Shown piece after piece: positions 3,151-17,521 of a stretch of DNA of 64,000 nt (positions are counted from its first letter, which is position 1; each line of letters starts with the position of its first letter). The notes beneath the pieces were generated by a model, which was not told the DNA's origin, made no database searches, and saw nothing but the letters and a program-made list of their open reading frames with translations. This DNA comes from Armatimonadota bacterium (GTDB taxonomy: Bacteria > Armatimonadota > Fimbriimonadia > Fimbriimonadales > Fimbriimonadaceae), in NCBI GenBank assembly GCA_031400935.1, contig JANNQV010000017.1:62001-126000 (forward strand). The letters are read 5' to 3'. The position numbers were made by a program, and so were the translations under genes.

Positions 3151-4098
3151 ATGGCATTCCGCCCAAAAGTAACTCTCTCGAAGTCGAGCATCGGTCTATA
3201 TGAAGAATGCCCGCGAAAGTGGGCGCTCCATTATCAATGCTATCGCACCCCGATGGACATTCGGCGTGAAGTCATGTTTCAAAAACGGCTGATGGGGTAT
3301 TTCGCGCTTGTAGGGCAAGTTGCCGACGATGCGATTACCTATTCTCTTCGCAAATATGTCGAAAAAGGCGAATGGCCCAAAGACTTAGGGAAAGGCATTC
3401 GGAAACTGGTTCAACAGTATCTCGACGAAACGCAAAGATGGCAATACTTGCACGAATCAGGCTCAGATGAGCCCGGCGACGGACGACGTCAGCCGATTGA
3501 CCGATATTTTTTTGACGGGTTGCCGGGCGAGGAAGAAAAGGAAGAAATCGCACTAAAGGTAGCCGAATTTGTGGACGCCTGGTTTGCCTCGCAAGTTCCC
3601 CAAATGCTCATTGATTTTGGCGTTGAAACTTGGGAAGTTCCCATCGTCAACATTACTCCAAACTTTCAATTTGAGAAAATTACCATCTGGGCGAAGTACG
3701 ATTTTGCTATACGAACCAAGGAGGAAACGATCCTGTTCGATTGGAAAACAGGCCGGGTTTCTGATTATTCTGAAAACGAGATTCGGGACCAACTGCACAC
3801 ATACGCAGAGTTTGCTATTCGAGAATGGGGAGCGGAGCCAGGCAAAATCAAGCTCTATGGAGTTTGGCTTGCTGCAGGTGCGGAAAATTGCCTAACGCCG
3901 TATCCGTTTGAAGAATTTCGATTGGGGAACCTGGAACGCGAATGGCTCGCGAAGCATGAAACTTTCGTTCACCTCTTAGAATCTGCAGGCAAGAACTTCG
4001 AGCACCTCTTTGATGTGTTCCCAATGACACAGCAAGTTCATCGTTGCAAGGGATGCAAATTTCGGGTTTGCGAAGGGTTCAGCCGCGTCGAAATTTGA
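3151..4098 (+). CDS. Standalone PD-(D/E)xK nuclease (Cas4/AddB-like, probable Fe-S)
   Basis: N-terminal LSKSSI..YEECPRKW; YDF..FDWKTG; QL..YA; C-terminal CKGCKFRVC. Confidence 0.85.
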   Translation: MAFRPKVTLSKSSIGLYEECPRKWALHYQCYRTPMDIRREVMFQKRLMGYFALVGQVADDAITYSLRKYVEKGEWPKDLGKGIRKLVQQYLDETQRWQYLHESGSDEPGDGRRQPIDRYFFDGLPGEEEKEEIALKVAEFVDAWFASQVPQMLIDFGVETWEVPIVNITPNFQFEKITIWAKYDFAIRTKEETILFDWKTGRVSDYSENEIRDQLHTYAEFAIREWGAEPGKIKLYGVWLAAGAENCLTPYPFEEFRLGNLEREWLAKHETFVHLLESAGKNFEHLFDVFPMTQQVHRCKGCKFRVCEGFSRVEI

Positions 4099-7221: not shown

Positions 7222-9027
7222 TTACCTCTGCCATGACCAAACCTTAACTGCAACCTCAGCTAATCGCTCCGAACGCTTTCGAACCGCACCTAAGTTCCAC
7301 AGTCCATCGTGATCTTTCAGATCTCTCGCCAACGCCGTAATCTCCGAATAAGAATTCACCTTTGTAACAAAAATACTTTGACCCGCAAAACTATTCGCTG
7401 GTAGGCTCACGAGGCAGAGATTTCCAATACTGTTGATCAATGTCTCAAATTTCGGATGCTCGACTTCAGTGCCCAAATAAACCGCCCAAGAACTGTCGAG
7501 GGTTTGCGGAATGACATGTTCGATAGTCCGAAGGCTGCTGTAGTCCGGGTACTGGTCGTGTTTTTGCATTCCGCGATCTATTTCGGACAGCACCATTCTC
7601 CCGAAAGCAAGGTCGCGAGTACGATAAAGCGCTTTGTTGACGAAGGCTTCGACAAATTCCTGGTCCGAAACCCAAACTTCGTTCTTTTGAAAATGTTGGT
7701 GTAACGCCTTGACCGGATCGGCTTCGTGAGCAACCTGTACAAAAAGCCTTGGGAACATCGTGTCATACACAGTTGTTGGCTGCTCGGTCATTTTGCGCCG
7801 GACCAGCATAGTGAGCGTTTGGTCCAGAAGTCGCACAGCTAAGTCTTTACCGATGGCTTCTTGATTCAAATTCCGGATGAGGTCGAGCAAAAACGGCGTC
7901 GAACTCTCCATTCTCGTGTTGGCAATGTGCTCCAATATTCTGCGAACATCTTTATCAGGGTAAATGTGCTCCTCTGGCTCAACAATACAGCCGAATAGTT
8001 TCGCGCTGTCGTGGATCTCCTGAAGCTTCTGCCGGGCGACTACAGCATCGAGATCCTTATACCGATTTTTGAAGTGAACGTAGACCTTTCGGCTGGTGCC
8101 CACCATTTTACGTTCGCCAATTGAGAACAAGTTTCGGAGATATTCCTCGAATGTACTTCGATGCCTGAATTCTCGCAACGCCGCAAGCCAAAGATGGTTG
8201 TGAAGCTCCTCAAAATCGGAGACTTCCGTAAGCGGCCTGAAAAGATAGCTGCAAATCAGCTCGCTTGCCGATAGCGGCATGCCCTTATCGTTCAAGCTTT
8301 CGAAGATAGCTTGTGGGTCGTCTTTTCCGTCCTCCAATGGAATCCAAACGATTTTGAGGCAATCGAAAATCGCCGTTGCCAACTGCCACAATTTCGACAC
8401 ATCCTGAAAACCCAGCCGCATTTTCCTTTCGGCATACGCCACAAATGCATCCACTTGATTGGCCCCGGGCTGATAAAGCTCGATGTCGGTGTGATAGTGT
8501 GGAGACCGAGGATTATGCTCTGTTCCGAATATCGCCCGGTAGGTCGGCAGGCGATCGCCCTTTATGGAAAATAGCTTCAATTTTTGATAATCGTCGTCCG
8601 ACGAAGTTTCATTGATTAGCCACTTTCCGATTTCAGAACGGTACTTCGAGGCGTCGCTAGATTTGGTTTGCAAGGCTTCGAGACGGCGATAAATGATTCC
8701 CAAAAGCAAGTAAACCGTGGTTATGCGCTGTTGCCCGTCAATAACAAGAAATCGTTTGATGCCGTCATTGCTTCCCTTCTTTTCCAGCACGACAATTGGG
8801 CCGAAGAAGTGCTCAATTTCACTGGCATGGTCGCCTGCTTCGAGATCGGGAATGATGTGGTCGTTGATGTCTTCGAGAAGCTGGTCCCACTGCCGCCTTT
8901 CCCATGCGTAGCCTCTTTGAAAGAACGGGATTTCAAACTGAATGTCATCGGTGAATACAGAGCGGAATGTCCGGTTGCCGATTGTTTCTGTGCTTTGTTG
9001 CCTTTCAGTTTCAATTGTCATTTCCAT
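7222..9027 (-). CDS. DUF262-DUF1524 (GmrSD-like) modification-dependent restriction nuclease
   Basis: IPFFQRGYAW, VIDGQQRITT, IFESLN (DUF262); IEHVIPQ..IGNLCLV..AN (HNH-type DUF1524); start moved to ATG 9027. Confidence 0.9.
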   Translation of the reverse strand: MEMTIETERQQSTETIGNRTFRSVFTDDIQFEIPFFQRGYAWERRQWDQLLEDINDHIIPDLEAGDHASEIEHFFGPIVVLEKKGSNDGIKRFLVIDGQQRITTVYLLLGIIYRRLEALQTKSSDASKYRSEIGKWLINETSSDDDYQKLKLFSIKGDRLPTYRAIFGTEHNPRSPHYHTDIELYQPGANQVDAFVAYAERKMRLGFQDVSKLWQLATAIFDCLKIVWIPLEDGKDDPQAIFESLNDKGMPLSASELICSYLFRPLTEVSDFEELHNHLWLAALREFRHRSTFEEYLRNLFSIGERKMVGTSRKVYVHFKNRYKDLDAVVARQKLQEIHDSAKLFGCIVEPEEHIYPDKDVRRILEHIANTRMESSTPFLLDLIRNLNQEAIGKDLAVRLLDQTLTMLVRRKMTEQPTTVYDTMFPRLFVQVAHEADPVKALHQHFQKNEVWVSDQEFVEAFVNKALYRTRDLAFGRMVLSEIDRGMQKHDQYPDYSSLRTIEHVIPQTLDSSWAVYLGTEVEHPKFETLINSIGNLCLVSLPANSFAGQSIFVTKVNSYSEITALARDLKDHDGLWNLGAVRKRSERLAEVAVKVWSWQR

Positions 9028-9091
9028 TCTTTTTACACCCTGCCCAACTCCTCCATCATCTTCATACCTCAAATAAGGGAGGAGCTCCCGC

Positions 9092-11662
9092 TCACTTCGC
9101 CCCACTCCTCAATATCGCATTGAAAACCAGCTTAAAAGTCTGAGTTGGCTGGCCACGGAAGAGCACTTCGGGCCCGAAAAGCACAACCCTTCCCTTCCCC
9201 AGCGGAACATCGGCAATTGCGATTGTGTCTTTCAAAATCTCTTGCCCCCATGCCCAGCCAGAACGAAGCGGCTTGGCGGTATCGAATACTGCAACAGTGC
9301 TATCGGGAGGAGGAGTTGGGGTCGTCCACCGAAACGCAGGGCTGTTATCGAACATGGAGTCCACATAATCATTCAGACCCCGCGTAAGGCCGGAAGATAG
9401 TAATAACTGTATTCGAAGCACCGAGCCTGGAACATAGAATTTGGTGTTCGGAAGTCGGCGTGCCGTGCCATCTGGCCCGAGTTCAGTCAAGGCACTTTCT
9501 AAAGGCAATCCAAATGGCCTCAAAAGGTTCTGTGCCGAATCTCCGATCGCGATGATGTGTCCACCATTTTCTGCAAAAGTCTTCAATTCTGCAATCGCCT
9601 TCGCGTTCATGCTGCCCATTCGGGCTCGCCATTCGGCTGGAATGGTCTGATCGTTGCTTTGAGGTTCCCCGCCACCGCCAGGTCCTCCACCACCTTCACG
9701 AACTGCGCCTGGAATCGCGCCAGAAGGAAGCACAATTACATCAAATTTGTCCTTCAAATTGCCCTTCTCAAAGTCGGGCGGGAAGACAAGCTGAAAATCA
9801 AATCCAAATTGTTCGAAGACCCAGCGAGTCCAGCCGGAGGTCATCGAACCGCCGTAGCGATCCCAAAGTGCAATTCGAGGCTTGCCAACTTGCCTCGGAG
9901 TTGTTGGACCTGTGTGCAAGAATCCCCGTCCGGATGCACCATCGCCACGCAAAAATACTTCAGTTCCTGCGTGAAGGGCAGCATTTACTATCTTATAGCT
10001 GTCGAGATCGTGGAAACTTTGCCACTCAGTGAGATTTGCGAACGTAGTCACCCTTTGCCCGCCGATTACAGCCTTCGTTTCCAAACTCACTGGATCAAGA
10101 ACCCTCTCAAACTCGATCCCCATTTGAAACGCCAACGTGTACCCGGCATTGTCATAAGGCGGAATCGGTGGGCCGCCGGGAAACTGAAAGTCGTTCGGAT
10201 GGTCCTGAAACTCGAACATGTCCAATATTTGCGGCCGATAAGCCTGATTGCAGGGAATCACATATGACCCAGCCGGGCAGTTCTTGCCATTGACAGTTGC
10301 CGCCTGAGTGAGCTGCTCGACCTCGACGCCGCAATCCATCAGCCGGTCTACAAACCACCGCATCGAACCTGGATCGCGTTGATCTGCCGGCAAAACGTAC
10401 ATCCGGGCATCGCGCAGTTCTGGCTTCTTGATCGCATCGGCTCCCAACGCCATAACTCGGCTCGAATATCGGGTCCAAGTGTCTTTGTTGCCTCGATCAA
10501 TGGCGTTCTTTGCGGCTTGATAGGTGTCCAGCAGCAGCCTTTCTCGATACCGTGAAGCAAAATCCAAAATCGCATAGTTCGCCTCAACCTCATAGCGCAG
10601 AGAATCGCGCAGATGCCATTCGCCGGGCTCGACAGGCTTCGGAATATCGGTCGTCGGCACCTGGCGATTGTTCAAGAATGGAATCATCGTTGGGTTTGGC
10701 GAACCAAAAGTCTCCGTCAGAATCCCGATCATGTTGTGATAGTAGGTCGTCGTTCTCAGGCCGCCGTTCCACCAGGTCGAATAGTTCGCTGCGTTCCGCA
10801 TCACGGTTCCGCCAAGCCCTTGCACGATCAGCCGTGTGTGCATGTGCATCGCGACCGTATCCGTGGCGACCTGAATGATCGGATCCACATGATAGCTGAA
10901 CGGATTCCGGAATGGCGGGATGAACATAACCGTCCCCGCAGGAGCAGATTGATGGTGGTTGTACAGAATCTGCGGCGACCATTCTTTGTAGAGAATCCGG
11001 TTCATATTCCGCGTTTCGCTCATGTTGTTGGCGTAAAAATCGCGGTTGTTGTCGTGCCCGATGTACTTTTGATACAGCCTCGGAACGCCAGCCAAAGACC
11101 GAGTTTTCGGGTCGGTTTTGCGCATGTACCAATTCGAAACCAGGTCCATTCCATCGGGGTTGGCATGGACGACCAAGATGATCACGTCCTTCAAAATGCG
11201 CTTGTTCTCAGGGTCATTTCGGCTCACCAGCTGATAAGTGGTTTCTAAAAGCTGCTGCGCGCCGAGCACTTCTGTCGCATGCAGCCCGCCATCGATCCAC
11301 ACTACGGTCTTCGCGGTTTTGGCGAGCTTTTCAGCATCCAAATTGTCTTTGAAATCTCGCGCCATAGCGAACTTGCGGCTAGTGGTTCGGTGCTTTTGAA
11401 GGCTCTTCAGGTTCGCCGGATCGCTGATGATCGCCATGTACTGCTCCCTGCCCTCTTCCGTCTTGCCGATGGACTGCAGCATCATGCGGCTGGATTCCTT
11501 GTCGAGCTTTTGCCAATAGGCGGTGAGCTGTTCGTAGTTCGCAAGCCAATAGTCTTCGCAAACCTCATGCCCGAAGAACTGTTTGGGAGTTGTGACTTGG
11601 GCTTGGGCTGAAACGACAAATGCAGCGAGAGCGAGGAGGGGCAATGTACGGCGGAGAACCAT
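9092..11662 (-). CDS. M14 family zinc carboxypeptidase with C-terminal domain
   Basis: Signal peptide from ATG 11662; GLHATE (HxxE), ANPDG, DNNRDF, NHHQ. Confidence 0.88.
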   Translation of the reverse strand: MVLRRTLPLLALAAFVVSAQAQVTTPKQFFGHEVCEDYWLANYEQLTAYWQKLDKESSRMMLQSIGKTEEGREQYMAIISDPANLKSLQKHRTTSRKFAMARDFKDNLDAEKLAKTAKTVVWIDGGLHATEVLGAQQLLETTYQLVSRNDPENKRILKDVIILVVHANPDGMDLVSNWYMRKTDPKTRSLAGVPRLYQKYIGHDNNRDFYANNMSETRNMNRILYKEWSPQILYNHHQSAPAGTVMFIPPFRNPFSYHVDPIIQVATDTVAMHMHTRLIVQGLGGTVMRNAANYSTWWNGGLRTTTYYHNMIGILTETFGSPNPTMIPFLNNRQVPTTDIPKPVEPGEWHLRDSLRYEVEANYAILDFASRYRERLLLDTYQAAKNAIDRGNKDTWTRYSSRVMALGADAIKKPELRDARMYVLPADQRDPGSMRWFVDRLMDCGVEVEQLTQAATVNGKNCPAGSYVIPCNQAYRPQILDMFEFQDHPNDFQFPGGPPIPPYDNAGYTLAFQMGIEFERVLDPVSLETKAVIGGQRVTTFANLTEWQSFHDLDSYKIVNAALHAGTEVFLRGDGASGRGFLHTGPTTPRQVGKPRIALWDRYGGSMTSGWTRWVFEQFGFDFQLVFPPDFEKGNLKDKFDVIVLPSGAIPGAVREGGGGPGGGGEPQSNDQTIPAEWRARMGSMNAKAIAELKTFAENGGHIIAIGDSAQNLLRPFGLPLESALTELGPDGTARRLPNTKFYVPGSVLRIQLLLSSGLTRGLNDYVDSMFDNSPAFRWTTPTPPPDSTVAVFDTAKPLRSGWAWGQEILKDTIAIADVPLGKGRVVLFGPEVLFRGQPTQTFKLVFNAILRSGAK

Positions 11663-11763
11663 AGGAGTAAGTTCGGCGAGGGAGGGCTGGATTCCTGCCG
11701 GTTGTGTGGACACATTGTGCGTACTGATCCTGGTGTAGAGCGAGAGTAGGTTCAATATGTTGA

Positions 11764-13275
11764 CTAACGCGGCACAAATGACTTCCACGGCATGAATGCC
11801 TCACCGTAAAATGCTAGGTAGCGAAGTTTTGCGGCGACCAGGTCTCGAAACGACACATCACCGGAAAGGCAAGCTTCGAAGTCATCCACGTCCATAAGCA
11901 ACACATTTTTCGACGGATTTCGCTTTAGTCCATCTTCAACGTGCTTTGACCAGCCGGACATTGAAATTAAGAGACCAAACACCGTGCTGCCACCACGCTG
12001 GGCTTTCATAGACAGGACGTCGCAAGTTGCGAGGTCTTGTTCCTCTTTATGCCATTTGCATTCGGCAATGAATAGGTGCGAATCCAATTGAAACGCTCCG
12101 TCAATTTGCTCAGAGCGGCCGTGCCTATCAAAACTCTTTTCCGCATAAATAGCTTCGATCCTCAATAATTCGTTTAGGATCTTTTCAAGTTTGATACCTC
12201 GCGGAATCGGTTTCAATTTTTTTGCATCATCGTACATTCTCACTAACTTCGACCTTGCATCGGATCTGAGCGAACCTAGTGATGGGTCCGCCTTTACCGC
12301 AATGTCGATAAGACGCCGAAAGCAAGGTGAATCTGGACCAACAATTGAACGTATATATGCCAAGTGGCCAAGCGCAACGAGCCGAAATTGACCTAGATGA
12401 GAAGGATAACGATGTTTCTTATCATATTTAGCGTGAAACACTTGCTCAGCATTCTTCTCGCCATATTTGTCCCAAGCATGAAGCATTCCCCTAACTTTTG
12501 CTTCATATTCTCTTTTCACATTGACTTTGCTGTTAACTACTAGGCCTGTAACTACCTGTCGTTGATACCACGTCCGAAGGCGAGTCTTGCTTTCGTTTAC
12601 CTTAAACCCTTCCTTTAAGATTATGCCAACCAACAATTCACTTAGCTCTATTTCTGGTTGAAGAGTTGCGATAAACTCGTGACCAAATGGGCGGTTGCTT
12701 GAAAACGTAATGTCATCGGCATATCGAGAATAGCGACAACCTCTCCTACTAGCAAGGTTCTGCAATAATTTGTCAAGCCTGAAGCAAATTGCATTGGAAA
12801 TAATTGGCGAAGTTGGAGCTCCTTGTGGCAAAACACCAAGATTGCAACAAATCCGAGCCATGACGCGTGCTGCATCTGTATCTAAATTAAAGGGTTGACT
12901 CTGCAATAGACCAATCACCCGTTGCAAAGTGATGGTTGGGAAAAAGTTTGCTAAGTCAAGATTCAGCACGAAGCGCCTTCCCACATGCCGAACAGCGTTT
13001 TTATGTATGCCTCCACCTTTAATGAACCCGCATGTAGAATTCCTTGGTTCATATCGATTCTCAAGGAAAACTAACAATCGCCTTTGAAGCTGCTTTAGCG
13101 TCTTATCGGGGGCAAAGATCTCGCGGGATTTACCTTTCGCCTTAATGTTAAAACTAACGTACTTGCTCGCCGGCGAACGCGCCGCATGGTACCGAAGGTT
13201 CTTTTCCGAAGTGCTCAGTTCAGTAGCAACGTCAGCTACAGTTAGTTGAGAAATTGGGGCAACTTTGGAGAACAT
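11764..13275 (-). CDS. Retron reverse transcriptase fused to a C-terminal Mrr-like PD-(D/E)xK restriction endonuclease
   Basis: Retron region X NAVRH, LDLANFF, LPQGAPTSP, YADD, region Y VTGLVV; C-terminal RGIKLE..EQIDG..ECKW..GLLISMSGW. Confidence 0.92.
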   Translation of the reverse strand: MFSKVAPISQLTVADVATELSTSEKNLRYHAARSPASKYVSFNIKAKGKSREIFAPDKTLKQLQRRLLVFLENRYEPRNSTCGFIKGGGIHKNAVRHVGRRFVLNLDLANFFPTITLQRVIGLLQSQPFNLDTDAARVMARICCNLGVLPQGAPTSPIISNAICFRLDKLLQNLASRRGCRYSRYADDITFSSNRPFGHEFIATLQPEIELSELLVGIILKEGFKVNESKTRLRTWYQRQVVTGLVVNSKVNVKREYEAKVRGMLHAWDKYGEKNAEQVFHAKYDKKHRYPSHLGQFRLVALGHLAYIRSIVGPDSPCFRRLIDIAVKADPSLGSLRSDARSKLVRMYDDAKKLKPIPRGIKLEKILNELLRIEAIYAEKSFDRHGRSEQIDGAFQLDSHLFIAECKWHKEEQDLATCDVLSMKAQRGGSTVFGLLISMSGWSKHVEDGLKRNPSKNVLLMDVDDFEACLSGDVSFRDLVAAKLRYLAFYGEAFMPWKSFVPR

Positions 13276-13285
13276 ATCGTATAGT

Positions 13286-13391
13286 GGAGCCGTTCATCTT
13301 TGCGCAAGCCGATGCATAGCGCACAGCAATCTGCCGGATGTACCCTTGTTCAATATCGACGCAGTATCTGCGTCCTCAAGCAACGGCTCCG
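13286..13391 (-). ncRNA. Retron msr-msd ncRNA
   Basis: Perfect 9-bp inverted repeat ggagccgtt (13286-13294)/aacggctcc (13382-13390); G opposite G just inside the stem; 7-bp hairpin 13358-13374; ends 10 nt before the RT ATG. Confidence 0.8.
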
Positions 13392-13396
13392 GTCCG

Positions 13397-13440
13397 ATCT
13401 TACCCATTTCTCGATCAGACGTCAGCTCACAAAAAAAATT
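13397..13440 (-). promoter_or_regulatory. sigma70-type promoter of the retron
   Basis: -35 CTGACG (13425-13420), 17-nt spacer, -10 TAAGAT (13402-13397), upstream A/T tract; predicted start at the 5' arm of the ncRNA. Confidence 0.65.
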
Positions 13441-13474: not shown

Positions 13475-14041
13475 CTATACCAGGACGAATCGCTTTGGTT
13501 GTTCGAGCACACCAAGGTCTTGAATCGTATCTCGAATTGACATTTCGAAATAGCGAACATAACTGGGAAAGTTGCCCCGAATCAAGGTCTCCATCGTTCG
13601 AGCGTCACCTTCCGATCTGAAGCAAAGAATCGCCCCTAAACGCCACGGCCCGTTTCCTTTAGTTGCAACAGCACCACGCCCCAAATTGTGCTGCCTTATA
13701 CGTTTCGACACATCGTTCGAATACCCAACATACACGAGTCCTTCACTATTCACAATTACGTATACACAGAAAAGTCGCCCAATTACTGAATCTCCGTTGA
13801 TCTCTTTTCGAACCGTCTGCACTCCGAAATACTCGCCGTCAGGACTTTTGCTCGGCGTGGCCTTGATGTTCGGATCGGTATTGAAAAATGCAAGCGCATT
13901 CTTCTGTAATCTCGCCAAAATTGCAGATTGGCTCCGCCCAAAAGTGCACGAAAGCTCGCAAACGGAAGCTCCACGCCGATACATTTGAACTAGGTTTCTC
14001 TCTTCCCCTGAGGACCATGGCACATAAGCTCGGTCATTCAT
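13475..14041 (-). CDS. GIY-YIG nuclease with N-terminal HTH-like domain
   Basis: VYVI..LVYVGYS..KRIRQHN..TK..PW; N-terminal PWSSGEE..FGRS..AILARL. Confidence 0.85.
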   Translation of the reverse strand: MNDRAYVPWSSGEERNLVQMYRRGASVCELSCTFGRSQSAILARLQKNALAFFNTDPNIKATPSKSPDGEYFGVQTVRKEINGDSVIGRLFCVYVIVNSEGLVYVGYSNDVSKRIRQHNLGRGAVATKGNGPWRLGAILCFRSEGDARTMETLIRGNFPSYVRYFEMSIRDTIQDLGVLEQPKRFVLV

Positions 14042-14055
14042 TGTCTTGCCTGAAA

Positions 14056-15267
14056 CTAATGAGCCTTCCCCGCGTTTGCAGCTTTATAAGCATCTGCAAA
14101 GATTTTCACTTGCGCCATCACACCGTCTCGAATCTCGGCATACTTACTAAGAGATGCTCCAAACAATCCATACGTGCCGGTATCCCACACTTTTGCGGAC
14201 TCATATCTTCCTGGGAAGATAAAAACTCCGCGCTGAACGGCAACTTCTATCTTGTAAAAGGTCGTGCCAAGGCTGTTCTCCATTGCACCTACCCGGACAT
14301 ACAAGAGAGTACTTAGGAGGTCATTTCTTCTTAAGACCTCAATCTCCGTAGTGCCCTTGTCATTTCGAAATGCCTCGGTCTGCTTCGTGCTTTCAATAGA
14401 CGTCATTCCTGACCGTTCTAGGGCTTCCTTAACCCACCCTTCAACAGATGACTCTGAGAAACTCACTTTGATTGAACTTGGCAAGTCCTCGACAAGAACG
14501 CGTATTGGACCTAGTTTTTCAAGCACGCTGATCTCTACGGGAAGTGTGCCAATGGTCGGATTCGCAAGTATAGATGTGGTATTTGTGTTGGGTCTGTTTT
14601 CTGTTGATTTAGCGGAGCCACCGGATCCCAAAATGCTGATCGGCACTCCGTTAACACCCTTAAGCTCTTTCGAACTCACTGCAAAGTTGAGTCCTTGGCT
14701 CCCTTCTACACCTGATGTGACCATACCAATCACATCCCCCATCAGGTTCAAAACTGGGCTACCGCTACTTCCATGATCTACTGCCGCAGAGAGCTGTAAG
14801 ATGTTTCCGGACTTGATTGTGCGCTTTGCAGAAACCATGCCTTCTGTAAGCGTTCCTTCCAAACCCAGCGGACTTCCAATTACTAAAATCGTTTCGCCAA
14901 CTTTGGAACTAGCATAATCACCCAATTTGGGGCCCAACTCACGCTGTTGCCAGCCTTGATAGGCTTCGGTCAGCAGGATAGCAATGTCATTAGCGATGTC
15001 CACGTCCTTTACCCAAAGTGCTCGGACTTCCTTGCCGTCAGAGAACTTCACAGAAACAGACTTGGAACCTTCGATTACATGATAGGCTGTGTAGAGATCA
15101 CCTTTTGAGTCGAAGAATCCTGTCCCTCGGGAGCTTTCGGTGACAATCTGAACTACTGACTTACTATACTTCTCATAAATGTCCTTCGCAGTTAAGGTCT
15201 TTGTTGCTTGTTGAAATGGAACCAAGTTCGTTGAAAACAAGCATATTATGGGGACAAGACAAGTCAT
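14056..15267 (-). CDS. Trypsin-like (S1C) serine protease, exported
   Basis: GTGFF, TAYHV, DIAIL, GSSGSP; start placed at ATG 15267 after a TATACT box. Confidence 0.88.
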   Translation of the reverse strand: MTCLVPIICLFSTNLVPFQQATKTLTAKDIYEKYSKSVVQIVTESSRGTGFFDSKGDLYTAYHVIEGSKSVSVKFSDGKEVRALWVKDVDIANDIAILLTEAYQGWQQRELGPKLGDYASSKVGETILVIGSPLGLEGTLTEGMVSAKRTIKSGNILQLSAAVDHGSSGSPVLNLMGDVIGMVTSGVEGSQGLNFAVSSKELKGVNGVPISILGSGGSAKSTENRPNTNTTSILANPTIGTLPVEISVLEKLGPIRVLVEDLPSSIKVSFSESSVEGWVKEALERSGMTSIESTKQTEAFRNDKGTTEIEVLRRNDLLSTLLYVRVGAMENSLGTTFYKIEVAVQRGVFIFPGRYESAKVWDTGTYGLFGASLSKYAEIRDGVMAQVKIFADAYKAANAGKAH

Positions 15268-15328
15268 GCCCAAGTATAGCGATAATTGCGTGAAAGTTCA
15301 ATTGAAACAACTTGGAATGGTCGTCATT

Positions 15329-16159
15329 CTATGAATTTCTGATATGGGTTCCTTTTGTGCCTTCCTGAATCTTGAACGTCCCAATCCTCTCTTTCCCCGG
15401 GCTGAACACCCTCAACTCAAACTGTTTGGCGGGCAGCGATTCAATCGGAATCTCCACCCAATACCACCGGCTGTGAAAATCGCCAAACAGCCCTTCAAAC
15501 CCCTTCGGATCGGGAGCTAGAAATTCGTGAGCCATTGCCTCGGCGATTGGGGAGCGCTGATGCCATGGAAACGGTTCGACATCGCTCTTTTCTCGCCCTC
15601 GAAGTTCTGCGAGAAGATAGGCATGTGGGGCAACTCCCTTAACTTCCCAATCCGAACTGATCTTGCGCTTGAAGAACGGATTTGCTTTGACCAAATAGCC
15701 CTGAGATTCGCGGCGCGGAAGCTCCTTGCCATCCATTGTGATAAGAAATCGAATCTGATCAATTGCGAAAAGTTCTGGCTTTTCGCCATCTTCATCCAGT
15801 AATTTTCGCTTGGGATATGCGGAAAGGCGCACGATTAGGGTGATCTTTCCATCCAGAATCTGGCTGGTTGCGTTCCAGCGTTCTGCCCTTTGCTCTGCTG
15901 ACCATTTCTCTTTAGCGGCTAAGTATCCGTTCCATCGTGCCATCAACGCTGGGGAGAGCCAGATCGCCTCTTCTGTTGCGTGATGCCGGGTTCCATCGAA
16001 CCAGTTTCCGATCACCTGCCGATCTTCCATCCAGCATCTTTCGACGCCTTTGCCTTTGACAAAAACTTCGACCCCGCGCTTGAACTGAGCAGGATCAGGC
16101 GTATCGCCAAATCGCAAAGAATTGAGCACCAAGAAGCTCAGAGGGATTGTGAACACCAT
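15329..16159 (-). CDS. Hypothetical exported protein
   Basis: 276-aa ORF with hydrophobic N-terminus, divergent from pyrC. Confidence 0.6.
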   Translation of the reverse strand: MVFTIPLSFLVLNSLRFGDTPDPAQFKRGVEVFVKGKGVERCWMEDRQVIGNWFDGTRHHATEEAIWLSPALMARWNGYLAAKEKWSAEQRAERWNATSQILDGKITLIVRLSAYPKRKLLDEDGEKPELFAIDQIRFLITMDGKELPRRESQGYLVKANPFFKRKISSDWEVKGVAPHAYLLAELRGREKSDVEPFPWHQRSPIAEAMAHEFLAPDPKGFEGLFGDFHSRWYWVEIPIESLPAKQFELRVFSPGKERIGTFKIQEGTKGTHIRNS

Positions 16160-16192
16160 GCAAGATTGATTATCGGAAGATAGAATGAAGCT

Positions 16193-17521
16193 ATGCAGTT
16201 CGATTTGGTGCTTGCGGGCGGGGAAATTGTCGCGGAAGGGCGCGTCGAGGTTGCCGACATTGGCATCATCGAAGGCTCGATTGCAGCAATCGGTGACCTG
16301 CGAAATGCGCCAACTTCAGAGTTAGTTGATCTTAGTGGGCTCACTGTTTTGCCGGGGCTGATAGATACGCAGGTTCATTTTCGCGAACCTGGAATGACGC
16401 ATAAGGAAGACATCGAGTCAGGAACTCGCGCTGCAATTGCAGGGGGCGTGACAACCGTTTTGGAGATGCCAAACACGATTCCGCCAACAACAACCGCTTC
16501 CGCTTTGCGGGATAAATTGGAACGGGCAACAAGTGGTGCATGGTGCAATATTGGCTTTTTTGTCGGGGCTGCTTTAGACAATTTGGAGCTGCTTTCTGAA
16601 CTCGAAAATCTTCCTGGAACGCCGGGAGTAAAGCTGTTCATGGGTAGTTCAACTGGCCCGCTACTGGTTGGCGATGACGAAGCCGTCAGAAAGGTATTGC
16701 AGAACGGACGAAAGCGGATGCCGGTTCATTCTGAGGATTCGTTTCGGCTAGAAGAACGCAAGAAATTGATTTCGACAAATCCTTCCGTTCACGAGCATCC
16801 CTATCTAAGAGATGCTGAGTGCGCCAGGCTTTGCACCGAGCGGTTGCTTCGTCTTTCATTGGAAACCGGGCGGCCTGTTCATGTGCTTCACGTTTCTACT
16901 CTGGAAGAGATTCCGCTCATTTCCGAGGCTCGGAAGATGGGGATTGACGTGACAACTGAAGTCACTCCACAGCATCTTTGGTTTTCTTCTCCCGAATGTT
17001 ATGATCAGCTTGGAACTCTGGCTCAAATGAACCCGCCGATACGCGGTATCGAGCATCGAGATGCACTTCGGCAAGCACTGAAGGACGGTTTCTTCACCGT
17101 GTTTGGAAGCGATCACGCCCCACATACATTGGAAGAAAAAGTGCTTCCCTACCCCCAAAGCCCAAGCGGAATGCCAGGGGTTCAGACGCTATTCTCGGCT
17201 CTCTGGACACTTGGGGTTCACAATGAGCTTTTTGATATACGCAAGTTCGTAGAGATGGCTTGCTCTCGTCCTGCTACGCTGTATGGAATTCAGAATAAAG
17301 GGGAGATTCGTGTCAGTTTTGATGCTGATTTTGCCATCGTGGATCTCAAATCAGAGTACGTCTTTGAACGTTCCATGGTGCAGTCGAAGTGCGGCTGGTC
17401 GCCATTTGAAGGGGCGCGGTTTGTGGGAAAAAATGTGCATACCCTTGTTGATGGAAAGTTTGTACTTCGAGACTGTCGAATCTCCGGATCGGCATGTGGT
17501 TCGATTCCGAAATTTGTTTGA
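16193..17521 (+). CDS. pyrC: Dihydroorotase (amidohydrolase family)
   Basis: PGLID.QVHFREPG, MPNT, HVLHVS, EVTPQHL, MNPP, SDHAPH. Confidence 0.85.
   Translation: MQFDLVLAGGEIVAEGRVEVADIGIIEGSIAAIGDLRNAPTSELVDLSGLTVLPGLIDTQVHFREPGMTHKEDIESGTRAAIAGGVTTVLEMPNTIPPTTTASALRDKLERATSGAWCNIGFFVGAALDNLELLSELENLPGTPGVKLFMGSSTGPLLVGDDEAVRKVLQNGRKRMPVHSEDSFRLEERKKLISTNPSVHEHPYLRDAECARLCTERLLRLSLETGRPVHVLHVSTLEEIPLISEARKMGIDVTTEVTPQHLWFSSPECYDQLGTLAQMNPPIRGIEHRDALRQALKDGFFTVFGSDHAPHTLEEKVLPYPQSPSGMPGVQTLFSALWTLGVHNELFDIRKFVEMACSRPATLYGIQNKGEIRVSFDADFAIVDLKSEYVFERSMVQSKCGWSPFEGARFVGKNVHTLVDGKFVLRDCRISGSACGSIPKFV

Follow-up and report, generated by a model that had tools for sequence, protein, structure and literature searches.

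A clade-8 retron reverse transcriptase with a fused PD-(D/E)xK nuclease in an Armatimonadota genome

What is a reverse transcriptase (RT) that continues into a nuclease-like tail doing in the genome of a member of the Fimbriimonadaceae, and how would such a protein be kept in check? In this work, we have used profile searches, structure modelling and comparisons between related loci to analyse a 64,000-nt stretch of an Armatimonadota genome (here called the window), in which an earlier note had seen a complete single-gene retron bearing an Mrr-like restriction endonuclease. Many defence systems use PD-(D/E)xK effectors. Our results show that the window does contain a clade-8 retron encoded by a single gene, that its fused effector is new, and that it belongs to a sizeable unnamed family; it is a new effector on a known RT chassis, and not a new kind of system.

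A retron RT that continues into a nuclease domain

The fusion gene (P0001; 11764..13275, minus strand) is a single open frame coding for 503 aa, with no internal stops, one match in its own genome and a GC content of 45.3% against 48.7% for the genome. An assembly chimera was rejected, since the locus is spanned by two Logan contigs with zero differences, which may be the source samples, and the fusion recurs in 125 proteins. The RT, with its thumb and a helical linker, occupies residues ~12-333 (12277..13242, minus strand). The signatures claimed for it in the earlier note were all located, NAVRH at residues 93-97 (region X), YADD at 185-188 and VTG at 242-244 (region Y), and P0001 has the whole set NAxxH/YxDD/VTG that defines retron RTs in the main text of Mestre 2020 (PMC7736814). 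Pfam gave RVT_1 alone (residues 45-240). In PADLOC the best profile was RT-Protease_XI (E 5.9e-113, residues 11-324), followed by RT-TIR_XII (E 1.1e-109, residues 12-333) and RT-Toprim I-C; the top 25 were retron RTs without exception, and the best matches all end N-terminal of the C-terminal domain. Retron models of NCBIfam matched at E<=1e-59, as against E>=1e-9 for group II and DRT models. The four best structure matches of the model are retrons, and Retron-Eco2 is the best PDB match both in sequence (E 3e-48) and in structure (9i2f: Z 30.2, rmsd 2.7, 319 aligned, residues 7-337). By profile and structure matches, then, the protein groups with retron RTs and not with group II, DGR or DRT enzymes: it is a retron RT of clade 8 (type XI/XII-like) whose motifs are intact, clade 8 being made up, in the main text of Mestre 2020 (PMC7736814), of types XI, XII and I-C.

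The C-terminal domain (residues ~340-503; 11767..12258, minus strand) has no Pfam match in P0001 and does not reach the gathering score of PF04471 (Mrr_cat), so its identity had to come from relatives, the Atlas and the fold. In alignment A2, composed of P0002 (64% identical to P0001) and 19 of the 149 other listed 50%-identity representatives that reach the C-terminus, Mrr_cat was found in 16 of the 20 full-length relatives at E<=0.01, 13 of them above the gathering score. The nearest Atlas clusters are Mrr_cat proteins of 170-186 aa (best cluster 0.96, 65% Mrr_cat). The core of a PD-(D/E)xK nuclease consists of a helix, three strands, a helix and a strand, with the residues E..D..ExK. The A2-based model (pLDDT 89.4) has this order in the C-terminus, with helix 356-373, strands 377-384, 391-397 and 400-407, helix 415-427 and strand 432-438, and this core bears E364, D392 (QIDG), E405 and K407 (ECKW), the putative catalytic residues and a canonical E..D..ExK. 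Residues 341-501 match R.BspD6I2 (2p14; Z 11.0, rmsd 3.4, 149 aligned) and Nt.BspD6I (Z 10.9). A first model, built on a mixed alignment (A1; RT pLDDT 56.9), was used for C-terminal matches alone, and its isolated domain weakly matched MspJI (E 1.7e-3) and AspBHI (E 1.8e-2), and also FokI and Can2/Card1. The active-site set that the earlier note had read in this region, LE..IDG..ECKW, is thus present in full and in a domain that models as a PD-(D/E)xK fold.

Mrr type IV enzymes carry a separate recognition domain for modified DNA (Mrr_N or SRA-like). No Mrr_N/SRA-like Pfam match was found in P0001 and there is no room for such a domain between RT and core, so the term Mrr-like used in the earlier note holds for the catalytic domain and not for recognition; as modelled, the C-terminus is a bare PD-(D/E)xK catalytic domain.

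P0001 falls outside types I-C, XI and XII. With types XI (RT-trypsin) and XII (RT-TIR; PADLOC PDLC02959-62) it shares the single-gene layout and the RT core to residue ~333, but its C-terminus is a PD-(D/E)xK domain and neither trypsin nor TIR: there is no Trypsin_2 match, the PADLOC type XI match stopping at 324 before a domain that folds as PD-(D/E)xK, and no TIR match, the TIR-fusion matches stopping at 333-336. There is no C-terminal TOPRIM (EGxxD, DxD/E) either, and Toprim-fusion profiles reach residue 332 at most. The protein scored 308.9 bits with NF042941 (retron-TIR; cut-off 600) and 274.7 with NF038237 (Ec67; cut-off 450). Like P0001, Retron-Eco2 (Ec67, type I-C1, RT-TOPRIM; PDB 9I2F, 9LM3) joins a clade-8 RT to a nuclease, but the match ends at residue 337, the nuclease folds are unrelated and Eco2 cuts tRNA (PMC12916289). 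With Mrr_cat (PF04471) and FokI-like domains (R.BspD6I2, Nt.BspD6I and MspJI, and those of SPARDA and STAND effectors) the window nuclease shares the fold and E..D..ExK, with 32% identity to the stand-alone protein P0005, but unlike these enzymes it is fused to an RT and has no DNA-recognition domain.

The earlier note knew of no described retron of this kind, and none with an RT-Mrr or RT-REase fusion was found in the accessible literature. The fusions named in the main text of Mestre 2020 (PMC7736814) are with Toprim, TIR, protease and DUF3800, and 'Mrr' does not occur there. The protease-less clade-8 loci of Toro 2026 share the clade-8 RT and the upstream ncRNA, but are defined in its main text by separate WYL or DnaB_C genes; that text has neither 'nuclease' nor 'Mrr', and its supplement assigns all five of its Mrr entries to types II-A1, II-A3, III-A5, IV and V. 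RT-nuclease members could lie unlabelled among its 207 protease-less loci. The accessible parts of the Millman 2020 preprint, PMC8632793, PMC7159879, PMC12548924, PMC9122126 and PMC13092281 were also covered.

A widespread fusion on a promiscuous chassis

A profile search in which the top 8000 candidates were scored, so that the family counts are lower bounds, listed at least 120 clusters at 90% identity, of which at least 111 carry RT and nuclease. The same fusion was recovered in 125 of the 267 proteins fetched (two of the 125 are cluster mates of others). The RT DD (xxDD), D392 and E405 are invariant in all 125, while residue 407 varies between K (73) and R (52), and residue 364 between E (81) and Q (44). 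A subgroup of 32 has Q364/R407/Q424 in place of E/K/K and keeps D392 and E405, which points to an altered active site or substrate. Distances between RTs and between nucleases are correlated (rho 0.68; reached in 0 of 200 permutations). Named hosts are Syntrophorhabdales, Chloroflexota, Dehalococcoidia, Aliifodinibius salipaludis, Pseudocnuella soli, Thermodesulfobacteriota and Fimbriimonadaceae, and the fusion proteins bear database names of RT or restriction endonuclease and nothing else. Searches for loci with single proteins gave none for P0001 and P0010 and two RT-only loci for P0002; no full-length match occurred among the best 80 viral loci listed, and no longer protein (917-2615 aa) with this nuclease domain was found, which is weak evidence.

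The REase-fused RTs do not form one group in a quick, poorly resolved RT tree (5 changes, mostly at open forks), and the P0017 nuclease groups with stand-alone proteins (support 97). In view of these two observations, the origin of the fusion is probably not single. Among 64 matches with the RT only, the tails were trypsin in 39, TIR in 3, EAD7 in 2, metallophosphoesterase in 2 and Schlafen, DUF4062 and GGDEF in one each, and 15 had no second Pfam match. The clade-8 RT chassis swaps its C-terminal effectors freely, and the PD-(D/E)xK nuclease is one more plug-in; on so promiscuous a chassis, the nuclease fusion is less surprising. The proteins with Schlafen, EAD7, metallophosphoesterase, DUF4062 and GGDEF tails (P0036, P0037, P0063, P0039, P0061, P0045 and P0078) are further unnamed single-gene retron variants.

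The best PhoU matches, at 55-65%, place the host near the Fimbriimonadales. The distribution of the fusion is patchy and mobile. Across 228 genomes of the order a full-length match was seen in 2, and across 401 of the phylum in the window's own genome alone. The same-genus genome G401 (85% complete), in which no A2 match was found, matches window positions 11408-11703 and 15368-16972 with other DNA between them, so the retron occupies a variable slot of 3.7 kb. Directly upstream in this slot lies a gene for an HTH-like protein with a GIY-YIG domain (188 aa; 13475-14041, minus strand). The slot also has an upstream gene for a trypsin-like protease with a hydrophobic N-terminus (14056-15273, minus strand), for which 30 related genomes gave no match at E<=1e-30. 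A GmrSD-family nuclease gene (7222-9105, minus strand) lies 2.7 kb downstream of the retron gene, and a PDDEXK_1 nuclease gene is nearby (3151-4098, plus strand). The HTH/GIY-YIG, trypsin-like and GmrSD genes were considered as partners and rejected, as none recurs at related loci. No partner gene recurs among the 49 neighbouring ORFs of ten related loci, five of which lie beside a gene of defence type (HsdM, Abi_C, ThsB-TIR, Mrr_cat or AbiE).

The upstream non-coding RNA

Fusion loci were found in 5 of 80 metagenome loci, in 6 of 80 genome loci (L086 repeats L003) and in one same-family genome. Ten of them align upstream of the RT, with an a1/a2 stem, a GAT-loop hairpin, a conserved AAGG..CTTTAY and an msd stem, in RNAs of 136-160 nt. 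Over these ten loci 14 of the 20 ncRNA pairs change on both sides, which 0 of 500 shuffles reach, for a structure predicted from those same ten sequences; in slid controls the paired fraction falls to 31-53%. The RNAs of five relatives have fold z values of -3.7 to -5.3, and a regular-expression hairpin scan was positive in 21 of 157 upstream regions versus 6 of 272 controls. The msd sequences are not conserved among relatives and form no array. The model built from the ten REase loci also has matches at E<=0.05 close upstream of the RT at 34 other clade-8 loci, a likeness to types XI and XII from which it follows that the ncRNA belongs to the RT chassis.

In an alignment of 44 clade-8 ncRNAs (A6; for example L096:3759-3908, L103:2167-2313 and L016:781-939), a1 ends in RTT in 42, and the facing bases atop the a1/a2 stem covary, with G.G in 26, A.A in 6, C.A in 5 and T.G in 5 of the 42 scored. 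The branch position is without G in 16 of the 42, L096, L103 and L016 among them, and 14 of these 16 have A at it or one base after, counts that come from kin and are not independent. Type XI RNAs were validated by Khan 2024, where the branch nucleotide is 'most frequently' G. The non-G class may prime from an adenosine, or its register may be shifted. No RT residue convincingly tracks the two classes (best p 4e-4 in 631 tests).

The window has a candidate msr-msd RNA of 105 nt from a1 to a2 (13286..13390, minus strand, as are its elements and the candidate promoter). The a1 arm (13382..13390), the 5' arm of the closing stem, ends in RTT. It forms a perfect inverted repeat of 9 nt with the a2 arm (13286..13294), which lies 10 nt upstream of the start codon. 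The top of the stem is GTT/AAC, with a predicted branching G (13381) opposite the G at 13295, the commonest class in the relatives. Seven nt past a1 begins a 7-bp msr hairpin with a GAT-type loop (13358..13374), seen by hairpin scans, folding and the msr HMM. The predicted msd template, placed by position, is about 45-50 nt (13295..13340), and the predicted msd DNA folds weakly (-7.4 kcal/mol). The whole RNA is 30-55 nt shorter than those of the ten relatives, its fold z is -1.86 (7 of 200 shuffles are as good), and the covariance models R1 (10 relatives) and R2 (44) do not match it at E<=10; Rfam gave nothing meaningful at E<=10. An msr HMM made from relatives only ranks the hairpin first in the window (E 0.43, not significant) and outside the genome-wide top 12. 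A hand-written motif descriptor, which was written after the candidate was known and is weak support, finds the site among 44 in the 2.97-Mb genome and recovers 7 of 44 relatives. At L266, an intact relative with an a1/a2 RNA of ~128 nt, R2 matched the hairpin alone and not the full length, so the covariance models are insensitive on divergent branches.

A candidate sigma-70 promoter, CTGACG-17-TAAGAT (13397..13425), has its -10 hexamer 6 nt upstream of a1, and transcription from it would begin at a1. It agrees with the consensus at 8 of 12 positions, which falls below the threshold of the promoter scan, and the scan called no site upstream. In 8 of 12 loci, for which the start of a1 was set by eye, a TAnnnT hexamer is found 3-9 nt upstream of a1; the background is 3-18%. 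The candidate promoter overlaps an imperfect 8-bp inverted repeat (13393-13420), which could be an operator or a 5' hairpin.

The earlier note had placed a structured RNA and a promoter upstream of the gene and had called the retron complete. For the RNA, the repeat and the hairpin bear this out, but the fold z and the two covariance models do not; for the promoter, the -10 spacing seen in other loci agrees and the scan does not; and as to completeness, the single-gene layout and an upstream ncRNA across the family stand, but the RNA of the window is unusually short and missed by the models. We consider it a probable retron ncRNA, and likely a functional one.

Two of the related loci have an unusual arrangement. 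At L088 (3827-5503) a family member is broken by two stops, its RNA is intact and ThsB-TIR genes adjoin it. At L006 (1536-2936) an HsdM-like frame reads in the same direction into the retron ncRNA, an arrangement that would fit insertion of the retron into a type I methyltransferase gene.

Proposed control of the fused nuclease and its meaning

What might the fused nuclease do in vivo? We propose that this is likely a single-gene anti-phage retron in which msDNA would cage the nuclease until a phage protein disturbs the msDNA. By analogy we infer, for this copy, msDNA production, caging, a trigger, a substrate and a defence phenotype, in the following way. One transcript would carry both the msr-msd RNA and the RT-nuclease mRNA; the RT, going by retron biology, would prime from the G at 13381 and copy about 45-50 nt into msDNA; RT-msDNA units would assemble, probably into an oligomer like that of Eco2, and the msDNA would hold the fused PD-(D/E)xK domain inactive. 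Release would come from a phage protein acting on the msDNA, by cutting, binding or modifying it; the freed nuclease would cleave nucleic acids, DNA most likely, at low specificity, and the infected cell would be arrested or killed. FokI-type domains must pair to cut both strands, and the msDNA could also act by keeping the nuclease domains apart.

Among clade-8 single-protein retrons the mechanism is known for Eco2 only, where msDNA cages the TOPRIM until DenB degrades the msDNA, and its authors expect the same caging in types XI and XII (PMC12916289). Caging and release are the most likely course because the RT-nuclease retron has the same RT scaffold as Eco2 with a nuclease in the same place, and by inference it would work like Eco2. 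The reading is favoured by the recurring fusion with its conserved catalytic residues, the correlated RT and nuclease distances, the covarying RNA of the relatives, the lack of a recurring partner and the patchy distribution; the short, weakly folding RNA of the window, missed by both covariance models, and the scatter of the REase-fused RTs in the tree count against it. The substrate is probably DNA, although the Eco2 nuclease cuts tRNA, and R407 and Q364 occur in 52 and 44 of the 125 fusion proteins. The PD-(D/E)xK effector of SPARDA, once activated, cuts DNA and RNA indiscriminately (bioRxiv 2023.06.08.544223), and on STAND proteins Mrr_cat is interchanged with TIR and SIR2 (PMC9122126).

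An unlikely possibility is that the family works as a caged retron and that the RNA of the window copy is decaying or unusable, which would leave this retron crippled. The perfect a1/a2 repeat with its G opposite G, the GAT hairpin, the -10 in register and the intact ORF speak against decay, as does the lack of a full-length R2 match at the intact L266, although the msd is short, the outer stem is only 9 bp, the fold is weak, R1 and R2 miss the RNA and a broken family member does exist in L088.

It is rather improbable that the RT-msDNA licenses the nuclease or aims it at incoming or modified phage DNA, in a direct restriction that spares the cell and resembles a type IV (Mrr/MspJI-like) or a guide-dependent enzyme. 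An Mrr_cat domain, the weak MspJI and AspBHI matches and the lack of a recurring cognate methyltransferase at the ten loci would suit such an enzyme, but not the lack of a recognition domain between RT and catalytic core, nor msd sequences that are neither conserved nor arranged in an array; moreover, the trypsin and TIR effectors found in the same slot cannot restrict DNA. Unlikely too is the joint proposal of a widespread unnamed type (at least 111 clusters at 90% identity, in several phyla) in which msDNA, beyond caging the nuclease, would license it or aim it at invading DNA and part of the clade would prime from adenosine; 7 of the 9 scored REase relatives have no G at the branch position. 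Very improbable is a nuclease that is no toxin and matures the msDNA by removing its RNA template or trimming it, for all that it is placed like the RNase H of retroviral RTs and that this role was once proposed for the Eco2 TOPRIM, since the role has been excluded for Eco2 (PMC12916289) and, with no other effector gene recurring near the fusion, the system would have no output.

PD-(D/E)xK is a fourth common effector of clade-8 single-protein retrons, after Toprim, trypsin and TIR. As a unit of ~1.7 kb in which the RT, RNA and nuclease sites can each be point-mutated, the retron offers a direct test of msDNA caging as a general feature of fused retrons, and it also asks whether a DNase-type domain can be held by DNA that it might cut. 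The RNAs of the XI/XII chassis long went unrecognised, according to Mestre 2020 (PMC7736814) and Toro 2026, and the conserved ncRNA found here serves that chassis. The switch between G.G and A.A at the priming site bears on whether retrons must branch from G, and the roughly 105-nt RNA of the window would make a compact scaffold for retron-based editing tools.
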